From positions 1,747,982-1,811,981 of the forward strand of contig NC_090421.1 in assembly GCF_036365525.1 (NCBI RefSeq): 64,000 nt of DNA, written 5' to 3'. Below are positions 8,988 through 55,778 of the stretch, one piece after another; position 1 is the first letter of the stretch; each line of letters opens with the position of its first letter. The DNA comes from Heterodontus francisci (taxonomy: Eukaryota). The notes beneath the pieces were generated by a model, which saw only the letters and a list, made by a program, of their open reading frames with translations, did no database searches and had not been told where the DNA came from. The position numbers were made by a program, and so were the translations under genes.

Positions 8988-9090
8988 TAATAAAAACAAG
9001 AAATGCTGGAAATACTCAGCAGGTCTGGCAGCATCTGTGGAGAGAGAAGCAGAGTTAACATTTCAGGTCAGTGCCCCTTCTTCAGAGCTC
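8988..9090 (-). mobile_element. Penelope-derived short repeat
   Basis: Reverse complement of the 1656-1760 type; CTGAAGA...GAAATGTTAACTC. Confidence 0.65.
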
Positions 9091-9480: not shown

Positions 9481-11539
9481 TGTACCCTATACTGTACACT
9501 TCTGTAAAGCGCCTTAGAATGTTTTACTACAGTAAAGGCGCTGTATAAATGCAATTTACTGTTGAGGGAAAACTGCAGCAAGAGTGACAGTCTTTCTCTA
9601 CAATGGGCCACTCTCTCACAATCCTGGAAGAAACAACTTCGGCTGGTCATGGATGTGTGCCCGAGCAGTCAGATTAAGAATAGAACTGGCAGAGGCCTTT
9701 GAGCAGATTGCCAGCTCACTTTCTACTCTGTATGCTGGAGCAGAGGGAACCCAAAGAGTGGGACAGAGAAAAAAAAAATTGGCAGAGAAAATAATAGGCC
9801 ACTTTTGTACAAACAGCCCAAAGTGACCTCAGCTATATACAGCCTCAACCAGGTCTGCAAGTAGATAGGGAGAAAGTGTTTCCACTATTAGGAGAGTCGG
9901 TAACCAGAACACAGATTTAAGGTAACTACCAAAAAAGCCGGGGGGCGGTGGGGGATGAAGAATCTTTTTGAAAAAATGCAACGAGTTATGATCTGGAATG
10001 CATTGTCTGAAACAGCAGTGGAAGCAGATTCAATAGTAACTTTCAAAAGGGAATTGAATCTCAACTTAAAAAAAGAAAAACTTGCAGGGCTATGTGGAGA
10101 GTGGACTAATTGGATGGCTCTTTCAAAGAGTCAGCACAGGCACGATGGCTAAATGGTCTCCTTCTATACATCGTTTTAAGATAATCAGCACTGAATTCAC
10201 TGAGGTAGACCAGGGACTGGTGGAATTCTGTTAAAGTAGTCAGTGAAAATTGTAATTTATCTTGAGACAGGAATTTTCTTTACCTAGTAGATTCAAATAG
10301 GTCTCCAACATTGAAGGGGAGTAACAGTGCATCACTCCCAAATATGGACCACCTCACATACTTTGGGTGGGTACCAAATGATTCTGTAGCCCCCACAGTC
10401 TCAATAACTAAAAACAAAACTGCTGAGCTAACCTGTTTTTTCCTTCAAAATGAAGATCAAGAAAGTCAGTTGAGGCCCAAAGTGCAAAACACCAAGAGGA
10501 GAGAAATCAAGATGATGATTAAATGACACTAAAATTAGGTTTTAAAAAGCTGATAGATTAAGGGGAAAGAGAAGACCGAGTGAGGCGATCCACAATCCTG
10601 AAGTCATGGGAAGGGTGGAGAGAATAGGAAATGGTGCGACAAATCTTGATTTCAGCATGGTGAGGATGTAGGGAGGAGAAAGTGTGTAGGACAAGGCCTT
10701 TGAAGTTTAGAAGGGACAAAGTACTCTGTTGTAGCTCCATGGTCTGTGGTGTTTAATGACCATTTATTGGGTATATAGGTCTCTCCAACACCTATATAAT
10801 TCTTAACATGGCAAAGATCTGTCTACTGCCTGCTGAGCCTTCACACTCTTCATACCTGCTTTTGTGCTTTAAAACAGCAAAGCAGAGGCAACTTGGTAGC
10901 AGGCATTTTGTACTGAAAGCTTCCTGCAACCCAGATGAGAGGCTGCCTCATGTTTCCAAGAGCAAGTTGTTTTCCTCTTTTAAAGTAAAATCTAGAAAGG
11001 CTGTTCAATAGGTGAGGGGTACACAATGGAATTCACAGTCACCAATCCAATCTTAGGGTTCAAATGATCTTACATAGCATGAAAACAAAGCTCAAGCAGT
11101 TTGTCAAACAAACTTCAAGATCAGATTGTTGACTTGAATTCATGCATGGTATAACTGTCAGACATTAAATCTCATTTTATTTTCTTACTAGAGAATGTAG
11201 CCCATTTTATCTAGTGGATTCATTTTTTTTTAGTAGGTATCTGCATTAGAATGAAGTGCTGTATATATTGAACAGATTTACAATGTAGGATCTGAAGGTT
11301 CAGAGGACTGCATTAGAGCCTGCAATATTACTGTATCTTTTAACAGTAGCTTATTTTAACAGCAGCTTACAGGAAAATGTGTATCTTATGAAGAGAGCAC
11401 ATCTCCATAAGAGGTGTTAAGCACCTTGAAGACACAAAACACACATTGCATGAACCTCCATTGGACTGTAAGGTGGCGACATCTGTTGTGATGGCTGGGC
11501 CTTACGAAGTGGAAGTTTTTAGGCAGTTTACTAAGATAG

Positions 11540-15146: not shown

Positions 15147-15514
15147 CATCTGGAATCTTTACAAGCTCATTGTGAAACTTTTGCCACCTTCCCCTTCCTT
15201 CCTCAAGCGATTCTGGAAATTTAAGTCCTTGAACCCAGAGGAAGCAAACATTCACTGGCCCTCAAAGTCTCTCAATTGCACTCAAGCCTCACTCACCATG
15301 TGCTTCATACAGCTCAAAGAAAATTAAACTTATACAGACATCCATGGATACCGACTGCATGGCTCAGAGTGTGCATGTTCCCATTATTGCCCTACAGTTA
15401 ATGCCTCATATTTTCTAATTTAAACAAAACAATCTCCTCTCCTGTAAGCGCTACCTCTTGGCAGTTCTTTCAGTGATAACCCTCACGTGCACGACTATTT
15501 TTCACGCAAGCCTA

Positions 15515-15780
15515 TTTTTTTTAAATTATTCAATCCTGGGACGTGGGTGTTACTAGCTAGCCCAGCATTTATTGCCCAGCGCCAATTGCCCTCGAGAAGG
15601 TGGTGGTGAGCCACCTTTTTGAACCGCTGCAGACCTTGGGATGTAGGTACACCCAACAGTGCTGTAAGGAAGGGAGTTCCAGGATCTTGACCCAGTAACA
15701 GTGAAGGAATTCCCATGCATCTGCTGCCCTTGTCCTTCTAGGTAGTAGAGGTCACGGGTTTGGAAGCTGATGTCGAAGGA
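15515..15780 (-). mobile_element. 3' fragment of the same LINE family
   Basis: Matches the tail of 31925-35192, with an internal deletion. Confidence 0.75.
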
Positions 15781-21275: not shown

Positions 21276-21432
21276 AGATTAGATTAGATTAGATTAGATT
21301 AGAGATACAGCACTGAAACAGGCCCTTCGGCCCACCGAGTCTGTGCCGAACATCAACCACCCATTTATACTAATCCTACACTAATCCCATATTCTTACCA
21401 AACATCCCCACCTGTCCCTATATTTCCCTACC
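21276..21432 (-). mobile_element. 5'-truncated HE1-like V-SINE
   Basis: 3' half only, with (AGATT)5 tail on the + strand. Confidence 0.8.
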
Positions 21433-21885
21433 AGAGTTTTACATTTTATTGCATCACACCACCTGCTAGTTAGTTCACTGGGAAACAGTCACCAGTTTCA
21501 TATCACACATACTGGCAGTTTATGATCAAACATTTACTGTTTCAGTAAACCAAGCCACTGCAGCTATGTCACAAGATGGGGCAGGGAGGTGGGGGAGCGA
21601 AAGAAAATGCAATGCTGCAAGTTTAAAAAGAGAGGGGTAGTTAGGTGCTTGTAGACAAATGCTTTGGGCCAATTGAATTCTAAAATAAAATTGCTGTAAA
21701 AGATCAGAACAGGTAATAGCAGGATAATTCACACCTATGTGTGGCACACCAGACACAACTCACTATCACCATTTTACCAACCCCAATTACCTGTCCTTTT
21801 TTAAAATGTATGTGCTACCCTACCAAGAATTCATTTTTTGTTCTTTACCAGAGTAAACAAAACCCAGTGGTATCTTTTAACATAT

Positions 21886-22234
21886 GGGCGACACAGTGGC
21901 GCAGTGGTTAGCACCGCAGCCTCACAGCTCTAGCGACCTGGGTTCAAATCCAGGTACTGCCTGTGTGGAGTTTGCAAGTTCTCCCTGTGTCTGCGTGGGT
22001 TTCCTCTGGGTGCTCCGGTTTCCTCCCATATGCCAAAGACTTGCAGGTTGATAGGTAAATTGGCCATTAATAATTGCCCCTAGTATAGGTAGGTGGTAGG
22101 GAAATATAGGGACAGGTGGGGGATGTGTTAGGAATATGGGATTAGTGTAGGATTAGTATAAATGGGTGGCTGATGGTCGGCACAGACTCGGTGGGCCGAA
22201 GGGCCTGTTTCAGTGCTGTATCACTAAACTAAAC
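21886..22234 (+). mobile_element. HE1-like V-SINE, full length
   Basis: tRNA A/B boxes; V-domain (GTGGAGTTTGCAAGTTCTCCC...GCTCCGGTTTCCTCCCA); CR1-type tail; (CTAAA)n end. Confidence 0.85.
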
Positions 22235-24042: not shown

Positions 24043-24494
24043 CTGCAAGAAAAGCAAACACACATTAAAGTCAAAGTGGAGATCAGAATTGATTTAAGGC
24101 AGCAATATTCAGCTCGATGGGTAAATGTACTGTGGCATGGTACCAAGCCATAGAAATATGTGAAAAAGGGCAGTTGGGAAAGATTCCAGAGGGCTGAAAT
24201 TGTACTGCAGCCAAGAGTCATTAAAAAATTTACAATGAATGGGGGGAAAAACGCTTCTCATTATGTCCCAGCAGTTCATGTATTGCATAAAGTTACAATA
24301 CTTGCTGTGCACTCTGGGTAGCAAAAGAGTTAGAGAGCTTTATCAGCAATTCTTTGGCTAAACTGAGCAAAGTCATGATTGGTTGGAAAGTAATATACAG
24401 CAGTGTACCAAGAATTCAGGTAATTTACAGAGTCCTGTAGCTTAACAGGGCCAGAGAAAGAAAGCAGACGATGCGATACAACTGGGTTAGAATG

Positions 24495-24839
24495 ATTAGA
24501 TTAGATTAGATATACAGCACTGAAACAGGCCCTTCGGCCCACCGAGTCTGTGCCGAACATCAACCACCCATTTATACTAATCCTACACTAATCCCATATT
24601 CCTACCAAACATCCCCACCTGTCCCTATATTTCCCTACCACCTACCTATACTAGTGACAATTTATAATGGCCAATTTACCTACCAACCTGCAAGTCTTTT
24701 GGCTTGTGGGAGGAAACCGGAGCACCCGGAGAAAACCCACGCAGACACAGGGAGAACTTGCAAACTCCACACAGGCAGTACCCGGAATCGAACCCGGGTC
24801 CCTGGAGCTGTGAGGCTGCGGTGCTAACCATTGCGCCAC
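24495..24839 (-). mobile_element. HE1-like V-SINE
   Basis: Reverse complement of 21886-22234; (AATCT)n tail; possible GAATG target-site duplication. Confidence 0.85.
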
Positions 24840-25564: not shown

Positions 25565-26762
25565 AAGAACATAAGTAATAGGAGTAGGCCATTCAGCCCC
25601 TCAAGCCTGCCCCGCCATTCAATAAGATCATGGCTGATCTGTCCCAGGCCTCAACTCCTCTTTCGGGCCTGCTCTGCATAACCCTCGACTCCCCGAGATT
25701 GCAAAATCTATCTACCTCCTCCTTAAATACATTTGGTGACCTAGCCTCCACAACTCTGAGGCAGAGAATTCCAGAGATTCACCACCCTCTGAGAAGAAAA
25801 AATTCCTTCGCATCTCAGTTTTAAATGTGTAGCCCCCTTATTCTGTAATTATGTCCCCTAGTTCGAGATTCCCCCACCAGTGGAAACATCATCTCAACAT
25901 CTACCCTGTCGAGCCCCCTTAAAAATTTTATACGTTTCTAGAAGATCACCTCTCATTCTTCTAAACTCCAATGAATAAAGGCCTAACTTGTTTTGCCGTT
26001 CTTGATAAGACAACCCCTTCATCCCAGGAATCAGCCTACTGAACCTTTTCTGAACTGCCTCCAATGCTAGTATATCCTTCTTTAAATACGGGGACCAAAA
26101 CTGTACTCAGTACTCCAGGTGTGGCCTCACCAACACCCTGTACAGTTGTAACAAGACTTCCCTATTTTTTTTATTTTTTTAACTCTAACCCCCTAGCAAT
26201 AAAGGCCAAAATTCCATTTGCCTTCCTAATTACTTGCTGCACCTGCATGCTAACCTTGTGTTTCATGTACAAGAACACCCAGATCCCTCTGTACTGCAGT
26301 ATTTTGTAGTCTTTCTCCATCTAAATAATAATCTGCCTTTTTCTTTTTCCTACCAAAGTGGATGATCTCACACTTTCCCACATTGAACACCATCTGCCAA
26401 GTTTTTGCCTACTCACCTAACTGATCTATGTCCCTTTGCAGATTCTTTGTGTCCTCATCACTGCATGCCTTCCCACCTATTTTTGCATCGTCAGCAAATT
26501 TGGATACACCACACTCTGTCCCTTCCTCCAAGTCATTAATGTAGATCGTAAATAGTTGAGGCCCTAGGACCGATCCTTGTGGCAGCCCACTAGTTACGGC
26601 TTTCCAACCTGAAAAAGACCCAATAATCCCGACACTCTGCCTTCTGTGTGTTAGCCAATCCTCAATCCATGCCAACACATTACCCCCAGTACCCTGAGCT
26701 CTTATTCTGTGCAATAACCTTTTATGTGGCACCTTATCAAATGCCTTCTGAAAATCCAAATA
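25565..26762 (-). mobile_element. CR1 LINE 3' part nested in an L2 remnant
   Basis: DFQKAFDKVPH, PQGSVLGP, KFADD; ACCT on both flanks. Confidence 0.88.
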
Positions 26763-29369
26763 CCTGTCTTAATACCTCCTTATTTGGTTCAGTGTTACAT
26801 TTTTTGTTTGATAATCACACCTGTGAAGTGCCTTGGGGCATTTAACTATATTAAATGTCTACAGGCACATTGTTATTGTAAACTTCTTTAAAAAACTGGA
26901 ACCAATTGCAGACATGCAGGATCATTCAGTACAGTTCTTTTCTCCATTTCTGCTAGTTGAATTGCGATAAAAGTTTATTTCTGTGGCAAAATAAAGTAAA
27001 CTTCCCCTCTTCTGCTCACTCCTGTTTGATTTAAACAAAAAACTAAAAAGACTAAGGCCCTTACAGTGCAGACACCATCAAGAAAAAAAATCACTACCAC
27101 TCCCCATCAGCAATAGCATCCTTCTTGTGAAGTACAAGCAATGAAACCAACAAACCTCTGAAGGCGGAAATATTGCTTCTTGCTGATGTGAACTTTCAGG
27201 AGGTTTAATAAACATCTATACAGTAGTCAACATTGCATAAGAAACTTTACAGTCTGGAGTGGCAAGCATTTTAACCCATTGATTACAGTCACTAAACAGC
27301 AAAAGTAGTTAAAAACTAATAATTTGAATGCCTTTTTAGTACAACCATCTATTCAGACATCTACAATAAATAAAATGCTAATTTCAAAATATTTCTATTG
27401 TATACTATGACAAGGATTCATTCACAGGGGAAAATAATTCTTAAAAAAAAAAGTCACTAATCAAAAGGTTATGATTTTTCTCCACTGAATTCCTTTTTCT
27501 TCACCCGTTCTAATACTGAAAGGTTTTGCTTGGAGTTACATGCAGATAAACAAAGGATCCCTATTTAATTATTGAATTACCAGAGTTTACTGAGAAAGTG
27601 CTTCCTCAATTACACAACTGCATTTTGCTACTGTGTTCAGCACCAATGCACAGAAGGAGGAGGCCAACTCTGGTTCAGCCAGAGTATCAGGGGGAAGGCA
27701 TTAAGAAGAAGTGAGATCCGGTTCAATGAGGAAGCAATTTTTTTTCTTTAAATGGCTCAGTAAGCAAAGACCATTTGCAATCACTTCCTCTAAAAGGCAG
27801 GAAGGAAAACAGTTGGAAAAGAAAACTACACAAAATCCTTGCACCTCCCATGCTCATACATCCAGTCTTGTGGCTATTTTTGCTGGTCACATTTTATTGT
27901 CCATTGGCCTAGATTCAGATATTGTAATTCCCCAGCTTCTCATGTTTTTAATTGCGTTGGTACCAGTCTGCAATGGAGGAGTGGGGCTGAGCAGATCACG
28001 TTAGTGCTGCAGACACACAAAGAGATGGTGTATACATCAATCATAAGTTCCTTCTCACAGCAAGAGGCCAACGGCAATGACAACTTCACTGGCTATAATT
28101 TTTTTGTTGCTGCCACATTCTCCCTGCCGTCAACACTCATTTATAACATCTAGCGTGGCTTGCTTGAGAGCTCCACAAGAACTCAGAGGGGGTAGAAAGA
28201 ACACATTGTTGCCTTAAGAGGCTCACCCAGGCAGCACTCTTAACACAAAGCCAATTTGTTGGTGGACTCAAAACGCAGCAAAAACCTAGGCGACAGATAC
28301 AGCCCGCTGAAGTGTGCTATGTAATAAAAGTCTACATTCGCTATAAAAATGTAATGGGATGTTGGCAGAAATAGTCATGTACTTTCCAAGAAATGGCAAA
28401 CTAGATATTTAATACAGAGCTGTATTGTTGCTTCAATGTTATGCAAGAGGGTCATTATTCCACAGCATGCTGCAATGAGCCCACTTCTAACTGCATGTAA
28501 AAACTTCCCAAGCACCCTGCCATAACTAAATTTTCTGTCCTTGTTACAGTCAAAACATATACCACCTAACGGATGTCATTATAATTCACTCCATGTGCAC
28601 ATTTCCTGAAAGCAGTAGGTGTGCCAAATCCATTACGAGCTACAATAATGTTTTCTGTACTGATCATGAGCCAAGTACAGTTGAAGCTTGTTATGTAATT
28701 AAACAGTCAGCCAAGGAATAAACCAATGCTTTTCAACCTACAAGTCAGACCTCCTTTGCTGTCTCCTCCCCTCCCCACAAATAAAACTGATTACCTGTCA
28801 CCTCAACTATTACTGATAATAATTCTGAAATTTGTCATCTGCCTTTACTGAACTGCCACAACCACTGATGTATTCTCCATCTTTTTGGTCACTGAAGGCC
28901 ACCATACAATTAAATATTGCAATTACAAGACACACCAACAACTAGTAGAAGAAAGGAGTGCAACACGGGTTAATGGAGGATCTCAATATAGATTCAAGTG
29001 AACAGCAAAAAGGAGTAATTGTACTGAGTTTGGTCAAGAATCTAGAGTCAACACACCTCCAATTAATGGGAGGGCAGTGAATTTAATTTAATTTTATATG
29101 CATGAAACAAGGTCGACTGTTCTTTTATTCTTTCATTAGTTTTTTAAAGCTTAAACATTATATACTGAACAGCCTCAGTCATATAGTGACAATAGGTGAT
29201 GCCGCTTTCTCAAAACATTTAAGTGCATCCTGTGACCCATCACAATTCTAGTCACTTCATTCAAAACTCCCCAAAACCCAAGTAGACTAACAAATACATG
29301 AAATCAAAAGCAATTGTTTAATCAACTCACTTGCCAGAATCCCCACAACTCTACATAATCAATGGACAT

Positions 29370-30472
29370 ACAGGGGAATGTGGCAGGTCGGATCCAAAAT
29401 TGGCTCAGTGACAAAGGGTAGTCGTCGACGGATGTTTTTGTGAATGGAAAGCGGTTTCCAGTGGCGTTCCACAGGACTCAGTGTTGGGACCCTTGCTGTT
29501 TGTGATATATATTAATGCTACAGACTTAAATGTGGGAGGCATGATTGGGAAATTTGCTGATGACACAAAAATTGGCCGTGTAGTTGATAATGAAGAGGAT
29601 AGCTGTAGACTCCAGAATGATATCAATTGTTTGGTTGAGTGAGCGGAAATGTGGCAAATGGAATTCAACCCAGAGAAATGTGAGGTAATGCACTTGAGGA
29701 GGACAAACAAAGTGAGGGAATACACAATAAACAGAAGGATATTGAGAGGGGAAGAAGAATTGAAAGACCTTGGAATGCATGTCCGCAGGTCCCTGAAGGT
29801 GGCAGGACAGGTAGATAGAGTGGTGAAGGCGGCATATGGAATGCTTTCCTTTATTGGCTGAGGTATAGAATACAAAAGCAGGGATGTAATGCTGGAACTG
29901 TATAAAACGCTGGTTAGGCCACAGCTGGAGTATTGCGTACAGTTCTGGTCACCACATTACAGGAAGGACATAATTGATCTGGAGAGAGTACAGAGGAGAT
30001 TTACAAGAATGTTGCCAGGGCTTGAAAGTTGCAGCTATGAGGAAAGACTGGATCGGCTCAGGTTGTTTTCCTTAGAACAGAGGAGGTTGAGGGGTGACTT
30101 AATAGAGGTGTACAAAATTATGAGGGGCCTAGATAGAGTAGGCAGGAAGGACCTGTTTCCCCTAGCGGAGAAGCCAATTACCAGGGGGCACAGATTTAGG
30201 GTGATTGGTAGAAGGATTAGAGGGGACATGAGGGAAAACTTTTTCACTGAGGGCAATGGGTGTCTGGAATTCATTGCCAGGAACGGTGGTGGAGGCAGAA
30301 ACCCTCAATTCATTTAAAGGGTATCTTAGACATGCACCTGAAGTGCTGTAACCTGGAGGCTACGGACCAGGTGCTGGAAAGTGCGGTGAGATTGGGCGGC
30401 TAGATTTTTCGGCTGGTGCAGACACAATGGGCTGAATGGCCTCCTTGGGTGCCGTAATTTTTCTTTGGTTCT
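29370..30472 (+). mobile_element. CR1 LINE 3' part
   Basis: [40 protein letters not shown]; CR1 3' UTR. Confidence 0.9.
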
Positions 30473-31924: not shown

Positions 31925-34900
31925 ATTTTTTTTTTTTTTAATTATTCATTCATGAGATGTGGGCGTCACTGGCTAGGCCAGCATTTATTGCCCATCCCTA
32001 ATTTCCCTTGAAGGTGGTGGTGAGCTGCCTTCTTGAAACACTGCAGTCCATTTGGGGTAGGTATACCCACAGTGCTGTTAGGGAGTTCCAGGATTTTGAC
32101 CCAGCAACAATGAAGGAACGGTGATATAGTCCCAAGTCAGGATGGTGTGTGACTTGGAGGGGAACTTGCAGGTGGTGGTGTTCCCATGCATCTGCTGCCC
32201 TTGTCCTTCTAGATGATAGAGGTCACTGGTTTGGAAGGTGCTGTCTAAGGAGCCTTGGTGCGTTGCTACAAAGCATCTTGTAGATGGTACACACTGCTGC
32301 CACTGTGCGTCGGTGGTGGAGGGAGTGAATGTTTGTAGATGGGGTGCCAATTAAGCAGGCTGCTTTGTCCTGGATAGTGTTGAGCTTCTCGAGCATTGTT
32401 GGAGCTGCACCCATCCAGGCAAGTGGAGAGTATTCCATCCCTCTCTTGACTTGTGCCTTGTAGATGGTGGACAGACTTTGGGGGGAGTCCAGAGGAGAGT
32501 TACTCGCCGCAGGATTCCTAGCCTCTGAACTGTTCTTGTAGCCACGATATTTACATGGCTACTCCAGTTCAGTTTCTGGTCAATGGTAGCCCCTAGGATG
32601 TTGATAGTGGGGGAATTCAGCGATGGAAATGCCGTTGAATGTCATGAGGAGATGGTTAGATTCTCTCTTGTTGGAGATGGTCATTGCCTGGCACTTGTGT
32701 GGCGCGAATATTACTTGCCACTTATCAACCCAAGCCTGGGTTTTGTCCAGGTCTTGCTGCATTTCTACACGGACTGCTTCAGTATCTGAGGAGTCATGAA
32801 TGGCGCTGAACACTGTGCAATCATCAGCGAACATCCCCACTTCTGACCTTATGATTGAAGGAAGGTCATTGATGAAGCAGCTGAAGATGGTTGGGCCTAG
32901 CACACTACCCTGAGGAACTCCTGCAGTGATGTTCTGGAGCTCAAATGATTGACCTCCAACAACCACAACCATCTTCCTTTGCGCTAGGTATGACTCCAGC
33001 CAGCAGAGGGTTTTCCCCGATTCCCATTGACCTCAGTTTTGCCAGCGCTCCCTGATGCCATACTCGGTCAAATTGCTGCCTTGATGTCAAGGGCAGTCAC
33101 TCTCACCTCTGGAGTTCAGCTCTTTTGTCCATGTTTGGACTAAGGCTGTAAATGAGGTCAGGAGCTGAGTTGCCCTGGCGGAACCCAAACTGAGCGTCAC
33201 TGAGCAGGTTATTGCTAAGCGAGTGCCACTTGATGCACTGTTGATGACACCTTCCATCACTTTACTGATGAATGGTAGGCTGATGGGGCGGTAATTGGCC
33301 GGGTTGGACTTGTCCTGCTTTTTGTGAACAGGACATACCTGGGCAATTTTCCACATTGCCGGGTACATGCCAGTGTTGTAGCTGTACTGGAACAGCTTGG
33401 CCAGGGGCACGGCCAGTTCTGGAGCACAGGTCTTCAGTACTACTGCCGGAATATTGTCAGGGCCCATAGCCTTTGCAGTATTCAGTGCCTTCAGTTGTTT
33501 CTTGATATCACGCAGAGTGAATCGAATTGGCTGAAGTCTGGCATCTGTGATGCTGGGGACTTCAAAGGAGGCCGGGATGGATCATCAACTCGGCACTTCT
33601 GGCTGAAGATGGTTGCAAATGCTTCTGCCTTATCTTTCGCACTGATGTGCTGGGCTCCCCCATCATTGAGGATGGGGATATTTGTGGAGCCACTGCCTCC
33701 AGTTAGTTGTTTAATTGTCCACCACCATTCACGGCTGGATGTGGCAGGACTGCAGAGCTTCGATCTGATCTGTTGGTTATGGGATCGCTTAGCTCTGTCT
33801 ATCGCATGTTGCTTACGCAGTTTGGCACGCATGTAGTCCTGGGTTGTAGCTTCACCAGATTGACACCTCATTTTGAGGTATGCCTGGTGCTGCTCCTGGC
33901 ATGCACTCCTGCACTCTTCATTGAACCAGGGTTGGTCTCCTGGCTTGATGGTAATGGTAGAGTGGGGAATATGCCAGGCCATGAGGTTACAGACTGTGGT
34001 TGAGTACAATTCTGCTGCTGCTGAAGGCCCACAGTGCCTCATGGATGCCCAGTTTTGCATTGCTAGATCTGTTCGAAATCTATCCCATTTAGCATGGTGG
34101 TAGTGCCACACAACACGATGGAGGGTATCCTCAATGTGAAGGCGGGACCTCGTCTCCACAAGGACTGTGCGGTGGTCATTCCTACCAATACAGTCATGGA
34201 CAGACCCATCTGCGGCAAGCAGATTGGATGAGGACGAGGTTGAATAGGTTTTACCCTCTTGTTGGTTCCCTCACCACCTGCCGCAGACCCAGTCTAGCAG
34301 CTGTGTCCTTTAGGAATCAGCCAGCTCGGTCAGTAGTGGTACTACTGAGCCACTCTTGGTGATGGACTTTGAAGTCCCCCACCGAGTACATTCTGCACCT
34401 TTGCCACCCTCAGTGCTTCCTCCAAGTGCTGTTCAACATGGAAAAGTACTGACTCATCTGCTGAGGGAGGGTGTAGGTGGTAACCAGCAGGAGGCTGCCT
34501 TGCCCATGTTTGACCTGATGCCACAAAACTTCATGGGGTCCGGAGTCGATGTTGAGGACTCCCAGGGCAACTCCCTCCCGACTGTATACCACTCTGCCGT
34601 CACCTCTGCTGGGTCTATCCTGCCGGTGGGACAGGACATACCGGGGGATGGTGATGGCAGTGTCTGGGACATTGTCTGTAATGTATGATTCTGTGAGTAC
34701 GACTGTCAGGCTGTTGCTTGACTAGTCTGTGGGACAGCTCTCCCAACTTTGGCACAAGCCCCCAGAAGTTAGCAAGGAGGACTTTCCAGGGTCGACAGGG
34801 CTGGGTCTGCCGTTGCCTAGGTCGATGCCGGGTGGTCCGTCCGGTTTCATTCTTTTTTTATTGACTTTGTAGCGGTTAAATACAACTGAGTGGCTTGCTA

Positions 34901-35192
34901 AGCCATTTCAGAGGGCATGTAAGAGTCAACTACATTGTTGTGGGTCTGCAGTCGCATGTAGGCCAGACCAGGTAAGGACAGCAGATTTCCTTCCCGAAAG
35001 GACATGAGTGAACCAGATGGGTTTTTACAACAATCGACAATGGTTTCATGGCCATCATTAGACTAGCTTTGAATTCCAGATTTATTAATTGAATTCAAAT
35101 TCCACCTTCTACTGCGGTGGGATTCGAACCCATGGCCTCAGACCAATACCCTGGGTCTCTGGGTTACCAGTCCAGTGACAATACCACTACGC
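31925..35192 (-). mobile_element. Near full-length CR1/L2-group LINE with tRNA-derived head, APE and RT (frameshifted)
   Basis: ORF pieces with PWFNEEC, NYRPISL, GVPQGSVLGP, FADD; B-box GGTTCGAATCC at 35130-35120; A-rich tail; inserted into an L2 remnant. Confidence 0.9.
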
Positions 35193-35793
35193 ATGGCCAC
35201 CAATGGTGCAGCGATGGAAATTGGGGATATGCAAGAGGCCAGAACTTGAGCAGTGTGACGATAACTTGAATTTACATGGCGTCTTTAACACAGTAATGCC
35301 TCACAAGGCACTTCACAGAAGGGTTAACAAAATTTTGACACAGCCACGGAGGGCTGTAGGAAGTTAGAGGTAGGGAAGGGAGAGGCCATGGAGGGATTTG
35401 AAAACAAGGACAAACGATTTTAAAATAGAGGCTTTGCCGGCCCAATTTTAAATATAGATATATCAAGACTGTGAAACACTTACATCAAAAAACCTTTAAT
35501 TATGTACCAAGTTTGAGGGCCCAATTTAGGTTGGAGTTTGCATTGTTGCATATAGTTGACTCCATTTCTAGTGCACAGATTGGAAGCCATTTTAAACCAT
35601 GGACAACACATTCTGAAACTCTGCAGTGTCAAATTATTTTACAAACTAGTGACATCATTCATGACTATGCTGGATTTTATGTGAACACATCCAAGTTTGG
35701 GAAAAAATGTTGACAACTGCTCAAATTATGATTAGACTGACAGAAACAGATGGGAGTTTGGATGGTACTTAGCTTTCTGAAAAAAAAACTTAC

Positions 35794-36861: not shown

Positions 36862-37809
36862 CTATTTTGGAAAAAATAAAAACTGTAAGATTCTCAAAAT
36901 GTATACACAAGACTGAAATAGTACTGTGGGATCGACCACAAATCTCACTCGAACTTGGCTTGTTCAGGATAACCATTTTTTAAAAAGGCAGTCGATCTTT
37001 GCATCAATACTGCCACCTTCTGGACAGGATTTAATTCAGATACTTGGAACAAGGTTGAAAAGATTGGAAAAAGCGAAGCTCAGAGTTGATCTGTGATCAG
37101 TACTTTTCTCAGACAATTGAAGATTCATTTTTAAAAAAACATGAACTTCAGAAATTTGACGACAAAATATTTGCCTGTCCAGGATGGGTCACTAGTCAAA
37201 CTGCCGAGGCATGCATCGCCTTCAACAATCAAGGTTATTCAATGGCCTGTGACCTAGTCTCTGAATTTGGGATTGGTTTCCTGATTGACAGTTTTATTGC
37301 AGCACAGTGTTCATTGTGTCAATTGTAGTCAAAGACAGCACTGAACTGCAATTAATCCAGACCTAAATTTTGGAAATCGGTTTCCTCTTACGCTCTGCAG
37401 TTTTCCTCCTCATCACAGCTGAGTCACACAGATTTGGTTTTCACCAAAACATCCATGCATAAAATTTCCAGGAGTCACTGGACAGCACTCAGGAAATTTT
37501 CTCTTCTCGAAGATATAGGACAAGGAGTAGGCCATTTAGCCCCTCAAGCCTAATCTGCCATTCAATCAGATAATGGCTAATCTGTGAGCCAACTCCATAT
37601 TTTGCCCCGTAGCCCTCGATACCTTTAGTTAACAAAAACCTCACAAATTAATTGATCTATCAATTCTTGTTTGAAGACTAACAAACTTCTACCACTGTGG
37701 AGGTGTTGCCTAATTTCACTCCTGAAAGTCTAAAATTTGGAGCCAGACCCAAGTCTCCTCGTCTTAGACTTACCAACCAGCAGAAATAGTTTTTTTTTTA
37801 AAAAAAGTT

Positions 37810-38226
37810 ACTTAATGGGATGTGGGCATCACTGGCTAGGCCAGCATTTACTGCCCATTCCTAACTGCCCTTGAGAAAGTGGTGGTGAGCTGCCTTCTTG
37901 AACCGCTGCAGTCCATTTGGGGTAGGTACACCCACAGTGCTGTTAGGAAGGGAGTTCCAGGATTTCGACCCAGCGACAGTGAAGGAACGGCCGATATAGT
38001 TCCCAGTCAGGATGGTGTGTGACTTGGAGGAGAACTTGCAGGTGGTGGTGTTCCCATGCATCTGCTGCCCTTGTCCTTCTAGGTGATAGAGGTTGCAGGT
38101 TCGGAAGGTGTTGTCCAAGGAGCCTTGGTGAGTTATTGCAGTGCACCTTGTAGATGGGTACACACTGCCGTCACTGTGCATCGGTGGTGAAGGGAATGAA
38201 TGTTGAAGGTGGTGAATGGGGTGCCA
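37810..38226 (-). mobile_element. 3' fragment of the same LINE family
   Basis: Matches 31940-32350; inserted within a CR1 remnant. Confidence 0.8.
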
Positions 38227-38927: not shown

Positions 38928-41753
38928 TACGAAGTCAATAAAAAGGAATGAAAGCGGACGGACCACCCGGCATCGACCTAGGCACCGGAAACGACAACGG
39001 CAAACCCAGCCCTGTCGACCCTGCAAAGTCCTCCTTACTAACATCTGGGCGCTTGTGCCAAAGTTGGGAGAGCTGTCCCACAGACTAGTCAAGCAACAGC
39101 CTGACATAGTCATACTCACGAATCATACCTTACAGATAATGTCCCAGACACTGCAATCACTATCCCTAGGTATGTCCTGTCCCACCGGCAGGACAGACCC
39201 AGCAGAGGTGGCGGGACAGTGGTCTACAGTAGGGAGGGAGTTGCCCTGCGAGTCCTCAACATCGATTCCGGACCCCATGAAGTCTCATGGCATCAGGTCA
39301 AACATGGGCAAGGTAACCTCCTACTGATTACCACTTACTGCCCTCCCTCAGCTGATGACTCAGTACTCCTCAATGTTGAACACCACTTGGAGGAAGCACT
39401 GAGGGTGGCAAGGGCACAAAATGTACTCTGGGAGGGGGACTTCAATGTCCATCACCAAGAGTGGCTCAGTAGCACCACTACTGACCGAGCTGGCCGAGGA
39501 CATCGCTGCTAGACTGGGTCTGGGGCAGGTGGTGGGGGAACCAACACGAGGGAAAAACATACTTGACCTCGTCCTCACCAATCTGCCTGCTGCAGATGCT
39601 TCTGTCCATGACAGTATTGGTAGGAGTGACCACCGCACAGTCCTTGTGGAGACGAGGTCCCGCCTTCACATTGAGGATACCGTCCATCGTGTTGTGTGGC
39701 ACTATCACCATGCTAAATGGGATAGATTTTGAACAGATCCAGCAATGCAAAACTGGGCATCCATGAGGCGCTATGGGCCATCAGAAGCGGAATTATACTC
39801 AACCACAATCTGTAACCTCATGGCCCGGCATACCCCCACTCTACCATTACCATCAAGCCAGAAGACCAACCCTGGTTCAATGAAGAGTGCAGGAGGGCAT
39901 GCCAGGAGCACACCTCAAAATGAGGTGTCAACCTGGTGAAGCTACATCACAGGACTATCTGTGTGCCAAACTGCATAAGTAGCATGCGATAGAGCTAAGC
40001 GATCCCATAACCAACAGATCAGATCTAAGCTCTGCAGTCCGTGACTGGTGGTGGACAATTAAACAACTAACTGGAGGAGGTGGCTCCACCAATATCCCCA
40101 TCCTCAATGATGGGGGAGCCCAGCACATCAGTGCGAAAGATAAGGCAGAAGCATTTGCAACAATCTTCAGCCAGAAGTGCCGAGTTGATGATCCATCTCT
40201 GCCTCCTCCTGAAGTCCCCAGCATCACAGATGCCAGACTTCAGCCAATTCGATTCACTCTGCGTGATATCAAGAAACTACTGAAGGCACTGGGACCGCAA
40301 AAGCTATGGGCCCTGACAAAATTCCAGCAATAGTACTGAAGACCTGTGCTCCAGAACTTGCAGCGCCCCTAGCCAAGCTGTTCCAGTACAGCTACAACAC
40401 TGGCATCTACCCAGCAATGTGGAAAATTGCCCAGGTATGTCCTGTACACAAAAAGCAGGACAAGTCCAACCCGGCCAATTACCGCCCCATCAGCCTACTC
40501 TCAATCATCAGCAAAGTGATGGAAGGTGTCATCAACAGTGCCATCAAGCGGCACTTGCTTAGCAATAACCTGCTCAGTGACGCTCAGTTTGGGTTCCGCC
40601 AGGGCCACTCAGCTCCTGACCTCATTACAGACTTGGTTCAAACATGGACAAAAGGGCTGAACTCCAGAGGTGAGGTGAGAGTGACTGCCCTTGACATCAA
40701 GGCAGCATTTGACCGAGTATGGCATCAAGGAGCCCTAGCAAAACTGAGGTCATCACTGCAGGAGTTCCTCAGGGTAGTGTCCTAGGCCCAACCATCTTCA
40801 GCTGCTTCATCAATGACCTTCCTTCAATCATAAGGTCAGAAGTGGGGATGTTCACTGATGATTGCACAATGTTCAGCACCATTCGTGACTCCTCAGATAC
40901 TGAAGCAGTCAGTGTAGAAATGCAGCAAGACAATGACAATATCCAGACTTGGGCTAGTAAGTGGCAAGTAACATTCGCGCCACACAAGTGCCAGGCAATG
41001 ACCATCTCCAACAAGAGAGAATCTAACCATCTCCCCTTGACATTCAACAGCATTACCATCGCTGAATCCCCCCACTATCAACATCCTAGGGGCTACCATT
41101 GACCAGAAACTGAACTGGAGTAGCCATATAAATACCGTGGCTACAAGAGCAGGTCAGAGGCTAGGAATCCTGAGGCAAATAACTCACCTCCTGACTCCCC
41201 AAAGCCTGTCCACCATCTACAAGGCACAAGTCAGGAGTGTGATGGAATACTCTCCACTTGCCTGGATGGGTGCAGCTCCAACAACATTCAAGAAGCTCGA
41301 CACCATCCAGGACAATGCAGCCCGCTTGATTGGCACCCCATCTACAAACATTCACTCCCTCCACCGACGCACAGTAGCAGCAGTGTGTACCATCTACAAG
41401 ATGCACTGCAGCAATGCACCAAGGCTCCTTAGACAGCACCTTCCAAACCCGCGACCTCTACCACCTAGAAGGAACAAGGGCAGCAAATACATGGGAACAC
41501 CACCACCTGCAAGTTCCCCTCCAAGTCACACATCATCCTGACTTGGAACTATATCACCGTTCCTTCACTGTCGCTGGGTCAAAATCCTGGAATTCCTTTC
41601 CTAACAGCACTGTGGGCATACCTACCCCAAATGGACTGCAGCGGTTCAAGAAGGCAGCTCACCACCACCACCTTCTCAAGGGCAATTAGGGATGGCCAAT
41701 AAATGTTGGCCTGGCCAGCTTCGCCCACATCCCATGAATGAATAAAAAAAAAA
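38928..41753 (+). mobile_element. Second copy of the same APE-RT LINE, lacking the head
   Basis: PDIVILT, GDFN, QFGFR, DIKAAFD, GVPQGS, FTDD motifs; tail ...CCCACATCCCATGAATGAATAAAA; inverted relative to 31925-35192. Confidence 0.9.
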
Positions 41754-42033
41754 TGCTATGAGGGGCTATGGAATGTAACACTGAGTTAACGATTGAAGTA
41801 GAGACCATGTAAATATTTAAGAATTGCTTAGATAGCTGGTTGAAGGAAAGGGAATTAAAGGGATAGGGGAACATTGCTTGCACGCAATTCGGATTATGGC
41901 TCTTTGGAGGCTAAACACTGGCAAAGACTGGTTGGACCAATTGGCCCATTTCCATTTTGTAATTTCTATCTAATTGCTCCCAACACAATGAACTTTGCAC
42001 TGTGATGTCTGTATTAACAAATAGTACAATGAT

Positions 42034-42766
42034 GTTGTATGCTATGTTCAGACTGGCCAAGAGAGTGTGGGAAAATGGCGCACTGACACGGAACACAAAA
42101 GTCCGAGTGTATCAGGCCTGTGTCCTCAGTACCTTGCTCTACGGCAGCGAGGCCTGGACAACGTATGCCAGCCAAGAGCGACGTCTCAATTCATTCCATC
42201 TTCGCTGCCTTCGGAGAATACTTGGCATCAGGTGGCAGGACTATATCTCCAACACAGAAGTCCTTGAAGCGGCCAACATCCCCAGCTTATACACACTACT
42301 GAGTCAGCGGCGCTTGAGATGGCTTGGCCATGTGAGCCGCATGGAAGATGGCAGGATCCCCAAAGACACATTGTACAGTGAGCTCGCCACTGGTATCAGA
42401 CCCACCGGCCGTCCATGTCTCCGTTATAAAGACGTCTGCAAACGCGACATGAAATCGTGTGACATTGATCACAAGTCGTGGGAGTCAGTTGCCAGCATTC
42501 GCCAGAGCTGGCGGGCAGCCATAAAGACAGGGCTAAATTGTGGCGAGTCGAAGAGACTTAGTAGTTGGCAGGAAAAAAGACAGAGGCGCAAGGGGAGAGC
42601 CAACTGTGCAACAGCCCCAACAAACAAATTTCTCTGCAGCACCTGTGGAAGAGCCTGTCACTCCAGAATTGGCCTTTATAGCCACTCCAGGCGCTGCTTC
42701 ACAAACCACTGACCACCTCCAGGCGCGTATCCATTGTCTCTCGAGATAAGGAGGCCCAAAAGAAGA
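42034..42766 (+). mobile_element. Young 5'-truncated RTE-clade LINE
   Basis: Uninterrupted ORF (STLLYGSEAW, RRLRWLGHV, C-terminal CxxC...H); (AAG)n tail; ACAATGAT target-site duplication at 42026-42033 and 42767-42774. Confidence 0.9.
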
Positions 42767-45151: not shown

Positions 45152-47236
45152 CTCATCAGAGTTATACAGCACAGAAACAGGCCCTTCGGCCCACCATGTC
45201 CGCGCTGGCCATCAAGCCCATTTATTGTAATCCCATTTTCCAGCACTTGGCCCATAGCCTTGTATGCTATGGCGTTTCAAGTGCTCATCTGGAAACTTGT
45301 TAAATGTTGTGAGGGTTCCTGCCTCTACCACCCCTTCAGGCAGTGTGTTCCAGATTTCAATCACCCTCTAGGTGAAAATTCTTTTCCTCAAATCCCCTCT
45401 AAACCTCCTGCCCCTTAACTTAAATCTATGCCCCCTGGTTACCATCATCTCCGCTAAGAGAAAAAGTCTCTTCCCATCTATCCCATCAATGCCCCTCAAT
45501 TTCGTATACCTCAATCAGGTCCCCCCTCAGCCTTCTCTGCTCGAAGGAAAACAACCCTAGCCTATCCAGTCTCTCTTCATAGCTGAAATGCTCCAGCCCA
45601 GGCAACATCCTGGTAAATCTTCTCTGCACCCTCTCCAGTGCAATCACATCCTTCCTATAGTGTGGTGACCAGAACTGTACACAGTACTCCAGCTGTGGCC
45701 TAACTAGCGTTTTTATACAGCTCCATCATAACCTAAAATAAAAGCAAAATACTGCGGATGCTGGAAATCTGAAATAAAAACAAGAAATGCTGGAACCACT
45801 CAGCAGGTCTGGCAGCATCTGTGGAAAGAGAAGCAGAGTTAACATTTCGGGTCAGTGACCCTTCTTCGGGTCTATGCCTCGGCTAATAAAGGCAAGTATC
45901 CCATATGCCTTCCTAACCACCTTATCTACCTGTGCTGCTGCCTTCAGTGATCTATGGACAAGTACACCAAGGTCCCTCTGTACTTCCTCGGGTCCTACCA
46001 TCCATTGTATATTCCCTTGCCTTGTTACTCCTCCCAAAATGCAACACCTCACACTTCTCAGGATTAAATTCAATTTGCCACTGCTCTGCCCATCTTACCA
46101 GCCCATCTAGATCATCCTGTAATCCAAGGCTTTCCTCCTCACTATTTACGACATCACCAATTTTCATGTCATCTGTGAACTTACTGATCATACCTCCTAT
46201 ATTCACGTCTAAATCATTAATGTACATTACAAACAGCAAGGGTCCCCGCACCGATCCCTGTGGTGCACCACTGGTCACAGGCTTCCAATTGCAAAAACAA
46301 CCCTCGACCATCACCCTCTGCCTCCTGCCACTAAGCCAATTTTGGATCAAGTTTGCCAAATTGCCCTGAATCCCATGGGCTCTTGCCTTCTTAACCAATC
46401 TCCCATGCGGGACCTGATCAAAAACCTTACTGAAGTCCATGTAGACTACATCAACTGCTTTAAACATCTAATCACCTCCTCTGAAAATTCAATCAAATTT
46501 GTTAGACAAGATCTCCCCCTGACAAAGCCATGCTGACTATCCCTGATTAATCCCTGCCTCTCCAAGTGGAGATTAATCCTGTCCCTCAGAATTTTTTCCA
46601 ATAGTTTCCCTACCACTGATGTTAGACTCACTGGCCTGTAATTACCTGGTTTATCCCTACTACCCTTCTTGAATAATGGTACCTCTCCTGTGGCCAGAGA
46701 GGATGTGAAAATTTGCATCAGAGCCCCTGCAATCTCCTCCCTTGCCTCACATAGCAGCCTGGGATACAACTCATCTGGGCCTGGGGATTTATCCACTTTT
46801 AAGCCCACTAAAACTGCTAATACCTCCTCCCTTTCAATGCTAATATGTTGAAGTATATCACAATCCCCCTTCCTGATCTCTACACTTACATCGTCCTTCT
46901 CCATAGTGAACACAGATGAAAAGTAATCATTCAAAACCTCACCTATGTCCTCTGGCTCCACACACAGATTGCCACTTTGGTCCTTAATGGGCCCTACTCT
47001 TACCCTGGTTATCCTCTTGCCTTACGATTTTCCTTTGTCTTGCCCGCCAGTATTATTTCATGCCCCCTCTTCGCTCTCCTAATTACTTTTTTTTTTTTTA
47101 AGTACCCCCCTACACTTTCTATACTCCTCTAGGGCCTCCGCTGTTTTCAGCCCTCTGAATCTGCCTTAGCCTCCTTTTTTTCCCCCCTTATCCAATCCTC
47201 TATATCCCTTGACATCCAGGGTTCCCTGGGCTTATT
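45152..47236 (-). mobile_element. CR1 LINE (ORF2 RT region)
   Basis: KSPGPD, NYRPVSLTS, QHGF, DFSKVFD, KFTDD; its 3' tail matches the V-SINE tail. Confidence 0.9.
45735..45870 (-). mobile_element. Penelope-derived short repeat nested in a CR1
   Basis: CCGAAGA-A-GGGTCACTGACCC-GAAATGTTAACTCT...; interrupts CR1 ORF2 sequence. Confidence 0.75.
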
Positions 47237-48351
47237 GGTCCCCAATATGCATCAATACACCAGCCACATTGAGATTTTAGACTATTTTTCGCCAAGAGTT
47301 ACATTTAATTGTTTGAAAAAATTAAACAAAGTGCACTCACACAAATTTAAAAAGGATAACATGACAACAGGTAGTGAAAATGCTAATGGGCTAAGTCTTG
47401 AAGTTGCTCCCCAAAATACACAACACATTAACACACTTCACTAATTGATCAACACCTCACACCAATTGTATCGGAAAGTCCCTAGTTCTGGGTGCTCCGC
47501 AGAAAAACAGACGCTCACTAAAAGCTGAGAGCAAGCTTTTGTTCAGTTCAGAAGGCAGTTAGATGTTGCTTTGCTTAAGTCAAGCAAGACAAACCACTTA
47601 CATGGGAAAGGGCAGTGTGCTTATTATTTTGCATTACTAGAAGTGAGTTGTACTGACTTGCTGAATTCAATCATAATTGTTGTTCTGAGTTGACTTGCTG
47701 TGAAATAAAGCAGTTTAAACCATTCATAGCTGGCCTTGTCTCATCAAGTATTAACTCAGTCGGTCTTCAAAAAGATTGCAGAGCACACACACAGGTGAAA
47801 AACAAATACCCTGTTCAGATCACAAGAGAGTCCTACTTGTGACAGCCTTGGTTACACAATCTTATAGTTAGGTACTGGACAGCATAGGCACAACCTTAAA
47901 CCCAAGATCTGGCCAATTACAGGAGTGACCAGCATTACTGCACCCAAGAGCATATCCAAGGTTAACACCAAAACTTGCACCACCATCTCAGCACTCTATA
48001 CTTCCATTTTTCAATGAGTAGGAAGTCCAAGATAGGGTCTCAGAAGAGGTACCAGTGGAAACCTGGTACAGTCCCAACCAGTAAAAATGGCCATGTTTAA
48101 AACGGACAGTCTCCTCAACCAAAATGTGATACCCATTAACTATTTGGATTATCAATTTTAAAGCTCCCAGTTATAGCGTCAATGCTCCATTTGTTTCGAC
48201 CAGAAACAGCTGCACTTGCTGTGATATTATATGAATGCAGTACATATGACAAACTGATGCATTTAAATATTTATATTGGCTTTTAAACAATTCATTAGGA
48301 GAACTAAGAAAAAACTGAAGATATCAGTGTATTACTTCAGAAATTCTTGTT

Positions 48352-49088
48352 GCGCTCCGACGAGGTGCCGCCGCCGGCACCCAGCGTTTAGCGCTCCGAC
48401 GAGGTGCCGCCGCCGGCACCCAGCGTTTAGCGCTCCGACGAGGTGCCGCCGCCGGCACCCAGCGTTTAGCGCTCCGACGAGGTGCCGCCGCCGGCACCCA
48501 GCGTTTAGCGCTCCGACGAGGTGCCGCCGCCGGCACCCAGCGTTTAGCGCTCCAACGATCTGCCACCGGCACCCAGCGTTTAGCGCTCCAACGATCTGCC
48601 GCCGGCACCCAGCGTTTAGCGCTCCGACGAGGTGCCGCCGCCGGCACCCAGCATTTAGCGCTCCGACGAGGTGCCGCCGCCGGCACCCAGCGTTTAGCGC
48701 TCCAACGATCTGCCACCGGCACCCAGCGTTTAGCGCTCCGACGATCTGCCGCCGGCACCCAGCGTTTAGCGTTCCGACGATCTGCCGCCGGCACCCAGCG
48801 TTTAGCGCTCCGACGATCTGCCGCCGGCACCCAGCGTTTAGCGCTCCGACGATCTGCCGCCGGCACCCAGCGTTTAGCGCTCCGACGATCTGCCGCCGGC
48901 ACCCAGCGTTTAGCGCTCCGACGATCTGCCGCCGGCACCCAGTGCTTAGCACTCCGACAATCTGCCGCCGGCACCCAGTGCTTAGCGCTCAGACGAGGTG
49001 CCGCCGCCGGCACCCAGCGTTTAGCACTCCGACAATCTGCCGCCAGCACCCAGCGTTTAGCGCTCCGACGATCTGCCGCCAGTGCCTA
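48352..49088. repeat. GC-rich minisatellite, 39/36-bp units, ~20 copies
   Basis: Unit GCGCTCCGACGAGGTGCCGCCGCCGGCACCCAGCGTTTA (39 bp) and a 36-bp variant. Confidence 0.97.
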
Positions 49089-49768
49089 TAACATTCTATT
49101 CAAACTTCAATGAGGAATTAAGTGAATAAGTGAAGAATTCAATAAGATGGATTCTGCATTATACCGCATAATTGAATTGTGCTGGCAGACCATGGGTACA
49201 CTACAGGTGAGCGAAGGAGAGAACCAGAGTCATGCTCAACGGCAGCCACATACCAGCAGTGAGCTCCGAGGCACTGGACCATAAACATGACCCACAGACT
49301 GCGCTTTAGACCAGCGGTCACATATAACGGGCAAATCACCAACTCAAACATGTCTGCTATAAGTTGCAGAGACCTTCAGCATCAACTATCACTCTCAGCT
49401 ATCAGAGGTGCACAGCCTACTGAACAGAAAAGGGAGACCAAGAAGAAAAAAGTACATTATAGTGCAAGAGAGATACTAGGAATAGTTATGCTACATTAGA
49501 GGATACATTTAATAGCATTTACTGAATGCAGAATACAAAACCAGTGGGAAGTTCTAGACATCAAGCAAGTGAAGGCCTAAAAGATCAAACCATTGAAACA
49601 GATGATGTTGAAATGGCCTATCAGTTAAGATTCATATTAGTTGCAGTCGGGTGTCTATGGAAAACGGGCACATAACCTGCTTACAAGTAGTTAAATTAGT
49701 CTATAAAAAAGGACAATTTAGTAAAATGCTGAATCAGGGCTATTTTGCAGAAGTCCATCGATACCCAC

Positions 49769-51106: not shown

Positions 51107-51438
51107 GTTTTAGTTTTAGAGATACAGCACTGAAACAGGCCCTTCGGCCCACCGAGTCTGTGCCGACCATCAACCACCCATATATACTAATCCCATATTC
51201 CTACCACATCCCCACCTGTCCCTATATTTCCCTACCACCTACCTATACTAGGGGCAATTTATAATGGCCAATTTACCTACCAACCTGCAAGTCTTTTGGC
51301 TTGTGGGAGGAAACCGGAGCACCCGGAGGAAACCCACACAGGCACAGAGAGAACTTGCAAACTCCACACAGGCAGTACCCAGAATTGAACCCGGGTCGCT
51401 GGAGCTGTGAGGCTGCGGTGCTAACCACTGCGCCGCCC
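51107..51438 (-). mobile_element. HE1-like V-SINE
   Basis: Same family; (CTAAAA)n tail. Confidence 0.85.
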
Positions 51439-55004: not shown

Positions 55005-55778
55005 CGGAATGCCTCATCACCAGAACTTTCAAACAAGCACCAAGATGTAGCTTGGCTGGTGGTGAGAAGAGCCCTCCCCGTCAGATCCTTCCTGCATGCC
55101 CGAAGTCTCGCCCCCTCCACACAATGCCCCCGCGGTGGCTGTGGTGGGGAAGAGACGGTCGCCCACCTCCTCCTGGAATGTGACTTTGAAAAGCAGGTGT
55201 GGAAGGAGATGCAGTGGTTTTTGTCGAGGTTCATCCCAAGCAGCTCTGTAACACAGGAGTCTGTGCTCTACGGGCTGTTCCCAGGGACGCAGACCGAGAC
55301 AAACATCAACTGCTGCTGGAGGACTATCAATTCGGTCAAAGACGCCCTTTGGTCTGCTCGAAACTTGCTGGTCTTCCAGCGAAAAGAGTTGTCAACCACC
55401 GAATGTTGCAGACTGGCACATTCCAAGGTCCAGGACTACGTGCTGAGGGACGCACAAAAGCTTGGGGCAGCCGCAGCAAAGGCTCAATGGGGAAAGACCA
55501 CAGTGTAAGGTCCCCCCACCAAGCTGAACTGAGGGGCTGGATCCATGGGAAACCCCTCCAACTGTATCGGGAAAATTTCTGTCTCCTGTATAATGTAAAA
55601 ATGTATCTGGCAGGACAAATGTGAAATGGAAGGGTTGTGAGGCAACTCATAATTGTATAGAAGGAAACTGATCACCTTTGCACTGTTTGTATTTTTTGAC
55701 TTGATGCTGTTTTAAACTGTTTGGGGAATGTAATTTTTTACAGATTTTTATGAATAAAGTATATTTTGGAAAAAAAAA
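55005..55778 (+). mobile_element. Tx1/L1-clade LINE 3' fragment, copy 1
   Basis: zf-RVT-like CPRGGCGGEETVAHLLLEC; AATAAA and A-tail. Confidence 0.85.

Follow-up and report, generated by a model that had tools for sequence, protein, structure and literature searches.

The question raised by a 64,000-nt stretch of the Heterodontus francisci genome (contig NC_090421.1; hereafter the window, meaning the whole stretch analysed) is whether a long interspersed nuclear element (LINE) can undergo RNA polymerase III (Pol III) transcription and still serve as the source of its own protein. On its minus strand the window holds a LINE that begins with a transfer RNA (tRNA)-like head and contains a single endonuclease-reverse transcriptase (RT) open reading frame (ORF); an original prediction, made from the letters alone, had proposed an autonomous Pol III-transcribed element dependent on cap-independent or non-AUG translation. 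Compared with the named elements by leader (first 400 nt, by eye) and by length, its sequence matches the elasmobranch Zenon elements of the CR1 group. Since the head carries A and B boxes and no run of four T (T4; T4+ for four or more) occurs over 3.3 kb of the family majority, the master copies were likely transcribed by Pol III, and the purifying selection acting on the ORF speaks for this RNA being the one that is translated. Judged from sequence, that the element is a coding LINE transcribed by Pol III and translated from a non-standard start has a probability of roughly 0.6, and the proposed interpretation, in which Pol III would make the RNA and translation would be independent of a cap, is partly supported.

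The headed LINE and its relatives in the window

The features of the window that concern this element are the following.

31926-35192, minus strand: full-length copy of the Zenon LINE with the tRNA head, mutated and 5.6% from the column majority of the family, whose 5' end would correspond to about 35204
35113-35194, minus strand: head resembling tRNA-Thr, in which a further hairpin of about 20 nt separates the anticodon arm from the T arm (relaxed ARAGORN; alignment to a host tRNA-Thr(AGT) gene)
35184-35194, minus strand: A box, its first two bases altered in the window copy and intact in most family copies
35120-35130, minus strand: perfect B box, GGTTCGAATCC
34881-35112, minus strand: SINE-type body (SINE, short interspersed nuclear element), common to the partner SINE, in which an AATAAA (35086) and all but one of the nine upstream ATGs lie
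34898-34906, minus strand: in-frame ATG-Ala-TAG mini-frame immediately before the long frame, TAG being the family majority state
31998-34897, minus strand: single endonuclease-RT frame that in the column majority runs for 975 codons and has its first ATG at codon 285; indels interrupt it in the window copy
34722-34850, minus strand: out-of-frame ATG with a short overlapping frame (ATA, not ATG, in the older subfamily)
34525-34528, minus strand: T4 run private to the window copy
34442-34445, minus strand: T4 run private to the window copy
31926-31997, minus strand: short 3' untranslated region and poly-A tail
38928-41753, plus strand: sister copy that lacks the 5' part up to about element position 335 and has a T4 at 39727
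37790-38204, minus strand: 3' fragment of the same LINE family, 87% to the window copy
15514-15780, minus strand: older 3' fragment of the same LINE family
9088-9487, minus strand: partner SINE of 400 nt, in which the head and body run straight into the final ~70 nt of the LINE plus poly-A

Both boxes of the original prediction, a minus-strand B box at 35130-35120 and a clipped A box at 35194-35184, were borne out by the sequence. The family start differs from the predicted one: it lies about 12 nt upstream of it and includes a complete A box, the first bases of the window copy having been replaced. The body of the headed LINE spans about 230 nt between the tRNA-like head and the endonuclease-RT frame. 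Window and sister copies are both dead and frameshifted. The two sense-strand T4 runs described in the former (34528 and 34445), the single T4 (39727) and five runs of at least three T described in the latter, and the contrast with a T4-rich CR1 (three T4+ runs in 1 kb at 29368-30383) were all found as described. No tRNA was detected in the window by ARAGORN at its default threshold, and an Rfam scan of the window returned nothing meaningful.

The head-ORF junction in the genome

The family is abundant. A search of the 6.0 Gb genome with the head and the ORF start gave 9851 first-look candidates, 40 of which were scored. The head-ORF junction was covered in all of the scored copies besides the window copy (39/39), showing that it is family-wide and not confined to this locus; 38 of these 39 have starts no more than 7 nt apart, and poly-A was reached within the fetched stretch in 33. 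The position of the 5' end is that expected of a start from a type 2 promoter. Among the family copies, no consistent target-site duplication was seen. Because this first sample had been selected by the head, a second was drawn with endonuclease-internal DNA: among 29 copies, the head was present in 17, a break lay inside the leader in seven and a break at or after position 348 in five, and no alternative leader was found in these head-independent copies (0/29). Another endonuclease-drawn sample (n = 29, one locus common to the first) gave 16 heads, 12 leader breaks and one later break; one further sample, biased toward the junction, was excluded from the leader counts.

A column majority was built over 41 aligned copies of the young subfamily (mean 3.7% from the majority), most of which have the A and B boxes at consensus. 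Between the TAG at element position 305 and a stop at 3233 the long frame stays open, for 975 codons. The expectation that no ORF1 lies upstream also held, the 325-nt leader having stops in all three frames, followed by one frame with no hidden ORF1 seen. Endonuclease (PF14529/PF03372) and RT (PF00078) domains were identified by Pfam in one natural stretch of copy L047, and a structure model of the same copy (predicted local distance difference test, pLDDT, 81) adds nothing to the question. The protein is 24-30% identical to host CR1, and its best database matches (40-41%) are unnamed.

Heads were typed as tRNA-Thr in 35 of the 39 fetched copies under relaxed ARAGORN settings, and the head aligns with a host tRNA-Thr(AGT) gene except for the extra hairpin; both host tRNA-Thr genes found are followed by five T. 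Folding of the whole leader gave z = -3.0 in one copy, and a stable structure in the body was a weak candidate, the body alone giving +0.2 to -1.6 in three copies.

Young copies truncated at the 5' end have break points that cluster at element positions 184-200 (L204, L233, L235, L255, L301, L304, L311, L321, L322 and L323) and at 348-352 (L228, L241, L256 and L299). Both clusters lie at or just past an A5 tract; microhomology, pausing of the RT or processing of RNA ends are possible causes.

An older subfamily was represented by 39 copies (31 of 60 fetched plus 8 from another sample), which are 12% from their own majority and 6% from the young one; a search with an old copy as query gave mostly young copies, and the older ones were recovered by patterns. 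Their A and B boxes are different but valid. Over 903 codons from position 520, the ORFs of the two subfamilies differ by 95 synonymous and 40 replacement codons, and the long frame is under purifying selection between them.

Avoidance of T runs and T clusters

The young majority contains eight runs of three T (T3) and no T4, alongside 15 A4+, 13 C4+ and eight G4+ runs, and the older majority six T3 and no T4; a consensus free of T4 over the element, as had been predicted, was therefore recovered from the column majorities of both subfamilies. T4 runs are absent from 25 of the 41 young copies, and the 21 runs seen each occur in one or two copies except at one CpG-decay site; the sister-type T4 (39727) is a CpG-decay change found in 7/41 copies.

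Synonymous-codon shuffles of the 975-codon frame, with protein and codon usage fixed, gave 13.0 expected T3+ runs for 4 observed (p = 0.0005) and 10.7 expected windows with four T in five positions for 1 observed (p = 0.002), while A, C and G runs and clusters were at expectation. Corresponding values for the older subfamily were 3 vs 12.5 and 1 vs 10.4, and five unchanged single copies had the same trend. A mononucleotide shuffle gave 4.4 expected T4 for none observed (p = 0.009). Codons ending in TT occur before a T-starting codon in none of 24 cases, compared with 44/204 elsewhere. In human cells, Pol III is weakly terminated by interrupted T-runs (PMC3141230); the young majority has no T3VT2 or T2VT3, two T2VT2 and a single weak interrupted motif, which lies in the head hairpin. 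Phenylalanine takes up 18 of the 975 codons (1.8%), just under the lowest of 93 database relatives of at least 700 aa (1.9-7.7%), and the TTA codon is unused in the long frame.

Control majorities from the same genome, 16 copies each of CR1 and RTE, had no such depletion (T4+ 13 vs 9.1 and 2 vs 2.5 expected, respectively). Raw segments, which overlap because some loci were fetched twice, had 0.37 T4+ per kb in the headed LINE (1.56 expected from composition), 5.11 in CR1 (2.68) and 3.25 in RTE (2.72). Outside sharks, 75 metagenome loci yielded 47 relatives with a query-matching open frame of at least 500 codons, the other 28 being excluded. Observed/expected ratios in these 47 ranged from 0.59 to 1.44 for four-in-five windows and from 0.79 to 1.48 for T3+, against 0.09 and 0.31 in the headed LINE; the closest of them (41% identical) has seven T4+ runs. 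The avoidance of T clusters is specific to the sense strand, to T and to the headed LINE family. None of the 47 relatives, 30 of which have at least 400 nt upstream, had an A/B box pair upstream of the ORF, and no relative was found in viral contigs. A short leader motif upstream of the ORF, also visible by eye in the coelacanth Zenon leader (PMC13343379), is common to the relatives L153 and L181 and had no Rfam match.

The start of translation

Nine ATGs precede element position 305, the last of them in frame and two codons ahead of the TAG, AATAAA occurs at element 119 and 343, and an out-of-frame ATG lies at element 354 (window 34850). With nine upstream ATGs and two AATAAA in its first 350 nt, the element is a poor fit to a capped, scanned RNA polymerase II (Pol II) mRNA. 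The original prediction saw no obvious in-frame ATG before the endonuclease; one is present at 34906, but TAG follows two codons on, and the next in-frame ATG, the first of the long frame, is codon 285, beyond the endonuclease.

A master copy with a sense codon in place of the in-frame TAG was rejected, since non-T alleles, present in 31 of 118 copies, are spread over all subfamilies and the same change is seen at other CCTA sites. Recurrent T>G (and T>C) changes in CCTA context were observed at element 246, 306, 386 and 540 (34900 being the 306 site), at 11-26% per site; they occur in independent copies and look like a mutation hot spot of the genome. The out-of-frame ATG as a universal start with a frameshift was weakened as a candidate, since the older subfamily has ATA at that site, with ATG-Ala-TAG kept, and no canonical slippery site was seen by eye; one older-copy sample had been selected by the ATA pattern, another had not.

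Translation could begin by reinitiation or read-through after the in-frame ATG-Ala-TAG, or alternatively by internal entry at TTG or ACG, near-cognate codons that follow it closely, and this start is the least certain part of the explanation. Uncapped Pol III transcripts were reportedly found to be translatable at low efficiency by Gunnery and Mathews in 1995, and the protein of ribozyme-headed LINEs is said, after Ruminski in 2011, to be made also without a normal AUG.

Partner SINE and deletion derivatives

All 20 scored copies of the partner SINE that were fetched have the head, the body and the LINE tail. A SINE-form copy (L290) carries a young LINE-type head, indicating that heads are common to the LINE and SINE forms. 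Short leader-plus-tail derivatives of the LINE with differing breakpoints were also observed (L260, L262, L264, L265, L271, L273, L274 and L280). The leader may have been a SINE leader grafted onto a headless Zenon, or the element may be a tRNA-LINE fusion from which SINEs arose by deletion. The SINE body was not matched to any named SINE domain (UCON3, Meta and Deu were considered), and five short words from it were not found in the searchable supplements of PMC4824008 and PMC4758252 (all but one file each).

Comparison with known systems

The headed LINE has the traits of Zenon: no ORF1, a single endonuclease-RT ORF, a poly-A tail and a length of 3.3 kb. Zenon elements without ORF1 and with poly-A occur in elasmobranchs, coelacanth and hagfish (PMC13343379), and CarCar_Zenon-1, RhiTyp_Zenon-1, ScyCan_Zenon-1, HypSab_Zenon-1 and SquAca_Zenon-1/2/3 are alike in single frame, poly-A, length of ~3.3 kb and leader. 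By eye, the elasmobranch consensus leaders of that source (four sharks, one ray) were headed in 7/7, with no T4 in the first 400 nt and with the ray B box one letter short; the three leaders from hagfish and coelacanth have no head, and T4+ runs are present over the same length. In PMC13343379 the words 'tRNA', 'polymerase' and 'promoter' are absent from the text and 'tRNA' from the supplement, and the passages covered do not discuss the head, the boxes, the avoidance of T-runs or the lacking start codon.

Lepidopteran Zenon resembles the headed LINE in being a single-ORF, poly-A element with short derivatives that keep the 5' and 3' ends, such as the internally deleted Persaeus (PMC6740152), but Persaeus is stated there to be without tRNA homology or a Pol III promoter, whereas the shark LINE itself carries both boxes. 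SINE2 elements, including Zenon-tailed bivalve SINEs, are alike in their A/B-boxed tRNA head, body, LINE tail and lack of an internal terminator (PMC11481361). They are, however, short and non-coding, as among the elements here only the partner SINE at 9088-9487 is, while the shark LINE has 3.3 kb and a 975-codon frame under purifying selection. A tRNA-Thr-like head is common to MetaSINE and the shark LINE (PMC4824008); in MetaSINE a Meta domain of 66 bp follows the head at once.

RTE-1_DAn and elements related to it are LINEs reported with a tRNA-like sequence, but they belong to the RTE clade (PMC5786205, one sentence). R2 and other LINEs with a 5' hepatitis delta virus (HDV)-like ribozyme likewise obtain protein from an RNA whose 5' end is other than the usual cap (PMC5786205); that end comes from self-cleavage of a longer transcript, and the shark leader has no ribozyme match. 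A similar pairing is that of HE1 and HER1, an elasmobranch tRNA-headed SINE and a CR1-group LINE with a common 3' tail (PMC3747384). The partner SINE described here ends in the tail of the headed LINE, not in a canonical CR1 tail, and is set apart from HE1/HER1 by description. HER1 was reportedly classed as CR1-type by Ogiwara in 1999. No report of a Pol III-transcribed coding LINE was found in the literature, subscription journals, Repbase and Dfam lying outside the scope.

Other features of the window

Two exon-like frames on the plus strand (1183-1665 and 4207-4590) belong to what we take to be a myostatin/GDF11-type gene. A second SINE family is present at 21279-22233, 24487-24839 and 51109-51434; its end matches the CR1 3' end at 45164-45233, and it is a candidate for HE1. 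A tandem repeat (48267-49113) has open frames on both strands. Other LINE fragments are located at 41963-42712 (plus), 57926-59048 (minus), 55005-55624 (plus) and 25753-26825 (minus): two are RTE-like, one of them used as the control, one belongs to an RT family without assignment and one is presumably Tx1/L1-like.

Pol III transcription and its alternatives

The boxes, the start position, the lack of any other leader and the family-specific avoidance of T clusters are each as Pol III transcription predicts, and RNA-type assemblies (four runs), the contigs of which are uninformative on start, cap, strand and level, contain sequence from along the length of the element. TFIIIC would bind the A and B boxes, and Pol III would start ~10 nt upstream of the A box, pass the poly-A and stop at the first flanking T-run; the protein would then prime reverse transcription on the RNA that encodes it, at the 3' tail. 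An ancestral headless Zenon would have gained the leader by template switching, after which selection would have removed T clusters. The full proposal, an autonomous shark and ray retrotransposon whose 3.3 kb Pol III coding RNA would be translated without a cap or a normal AUG, recoded against terminators and shortened by deletion into SINEs, stands at about even odds.

Several observations weigh against this reading. T4 alone was not significantly depleted in the codon shuffles (0 vs 2.1 expected, p = 0.07-0.09), so that the depletion anticipated relative to codon-matched sequences was significant for T3 runs and interrupted T clusters but not for T4 itself. Under a first-order Markov null neither T3 nor T4 was significant, which means that much of the signal is avoidance of TT. 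A distant T-poor relative, L146, has no T4 for 1.9 expected and a similar avoidance of T-T codon junctions, the contigs of the relatives, of which only 30/47 have at least 400 nt upstream, may stop short of true 5' ends, and the two subfamilies, only 6% apart, are not independent samples. All 39 copies are disrupted, with no open stretch longer than 743 aa. In the leader there was no Rfam match and no HDV-like ribozyme (a loose descriptor matched 1/5 copies and 5/40 shuffles), and no translation-start mechanism or known structured RNA was identified in it. LINEs are held to be transcribed by Pol II and SINEs by Pol III, the weak processivity of Pol III limiting its elements to ~1 kb (Kojima, PMC10886601).

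These points lend some weight to an ordinary Pol II LINE, an alternative that we consider rather unlikely, in which the SINE-derived leader would be a 5' untranslated region or an internal Pol II promoter. The boxes would persist through exchange with the abundant SINE, in keeping with the young LINE-type head on at least one SINE-form copy (L290), or as TFIIIC sites, and the poverty in T would come from a TT-avoiding mutation or codon bias, RNA stability or immune sensing of U-rich RNA. The literature treats non-LTR elements as transcribed by Pol II (PMC10886601, PMC5786205), the T4 and Markov results agree with this explanation, and L146 lacks T4 without an upstream A/B box pair. It fits poorly, however, with a depletion that concerns only T and only the sense strand and lies far outside the range of the 47 relatives and the two LINE families of the same genome, with a 5' end at the expected start of a type 2 promoter, and with two AATAAA and nine ATGs ahead of the frame.

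A division of labour, in which Pol III would make the template RNA and the protein would come from capped Pol II read-through of copies in host genes, acting in trans, is improbable. It would account for the head and the avoidance of T clusters without translation of uncapped RNA, and both the element sequence in RNA-type assemblies and the many internally deleted derivatives moved in trans are in line with it; yet the mostly silent change of the ORF is easier to explain by copying in cis, and the capped read-through RNA would still be without a usable ATG. That the window copy is a one-off SINE-LINE chimera, a caveat of the original prediction suggested by the start of the sister copy near the junction, is refuted by the same junction in 39/39 scored copies, the older subfamily and the published consensus leaders of five species, and retains next to no probability.

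Zenon is a known family, and the mechanism proposed for it here, transcription of a coding LINE by Pol III, would be new if confirmed. If true, a natural coding Pol III unit of 3.3 kb that sharks and a ray have retained would break the rule that assigns LINEs to Pol II and SINEs to Pol III, an enzyme otherwise credited only with short non-coding RNAs, and would represent a coding sequence shaped by the avoidance of terminators. Its leader would be a natural one from which uncapped RNA is translated, SINEs could arise from LINEs in one step, and the element would offer a compact retrotransposon with a single ORF, testable in cell culture.

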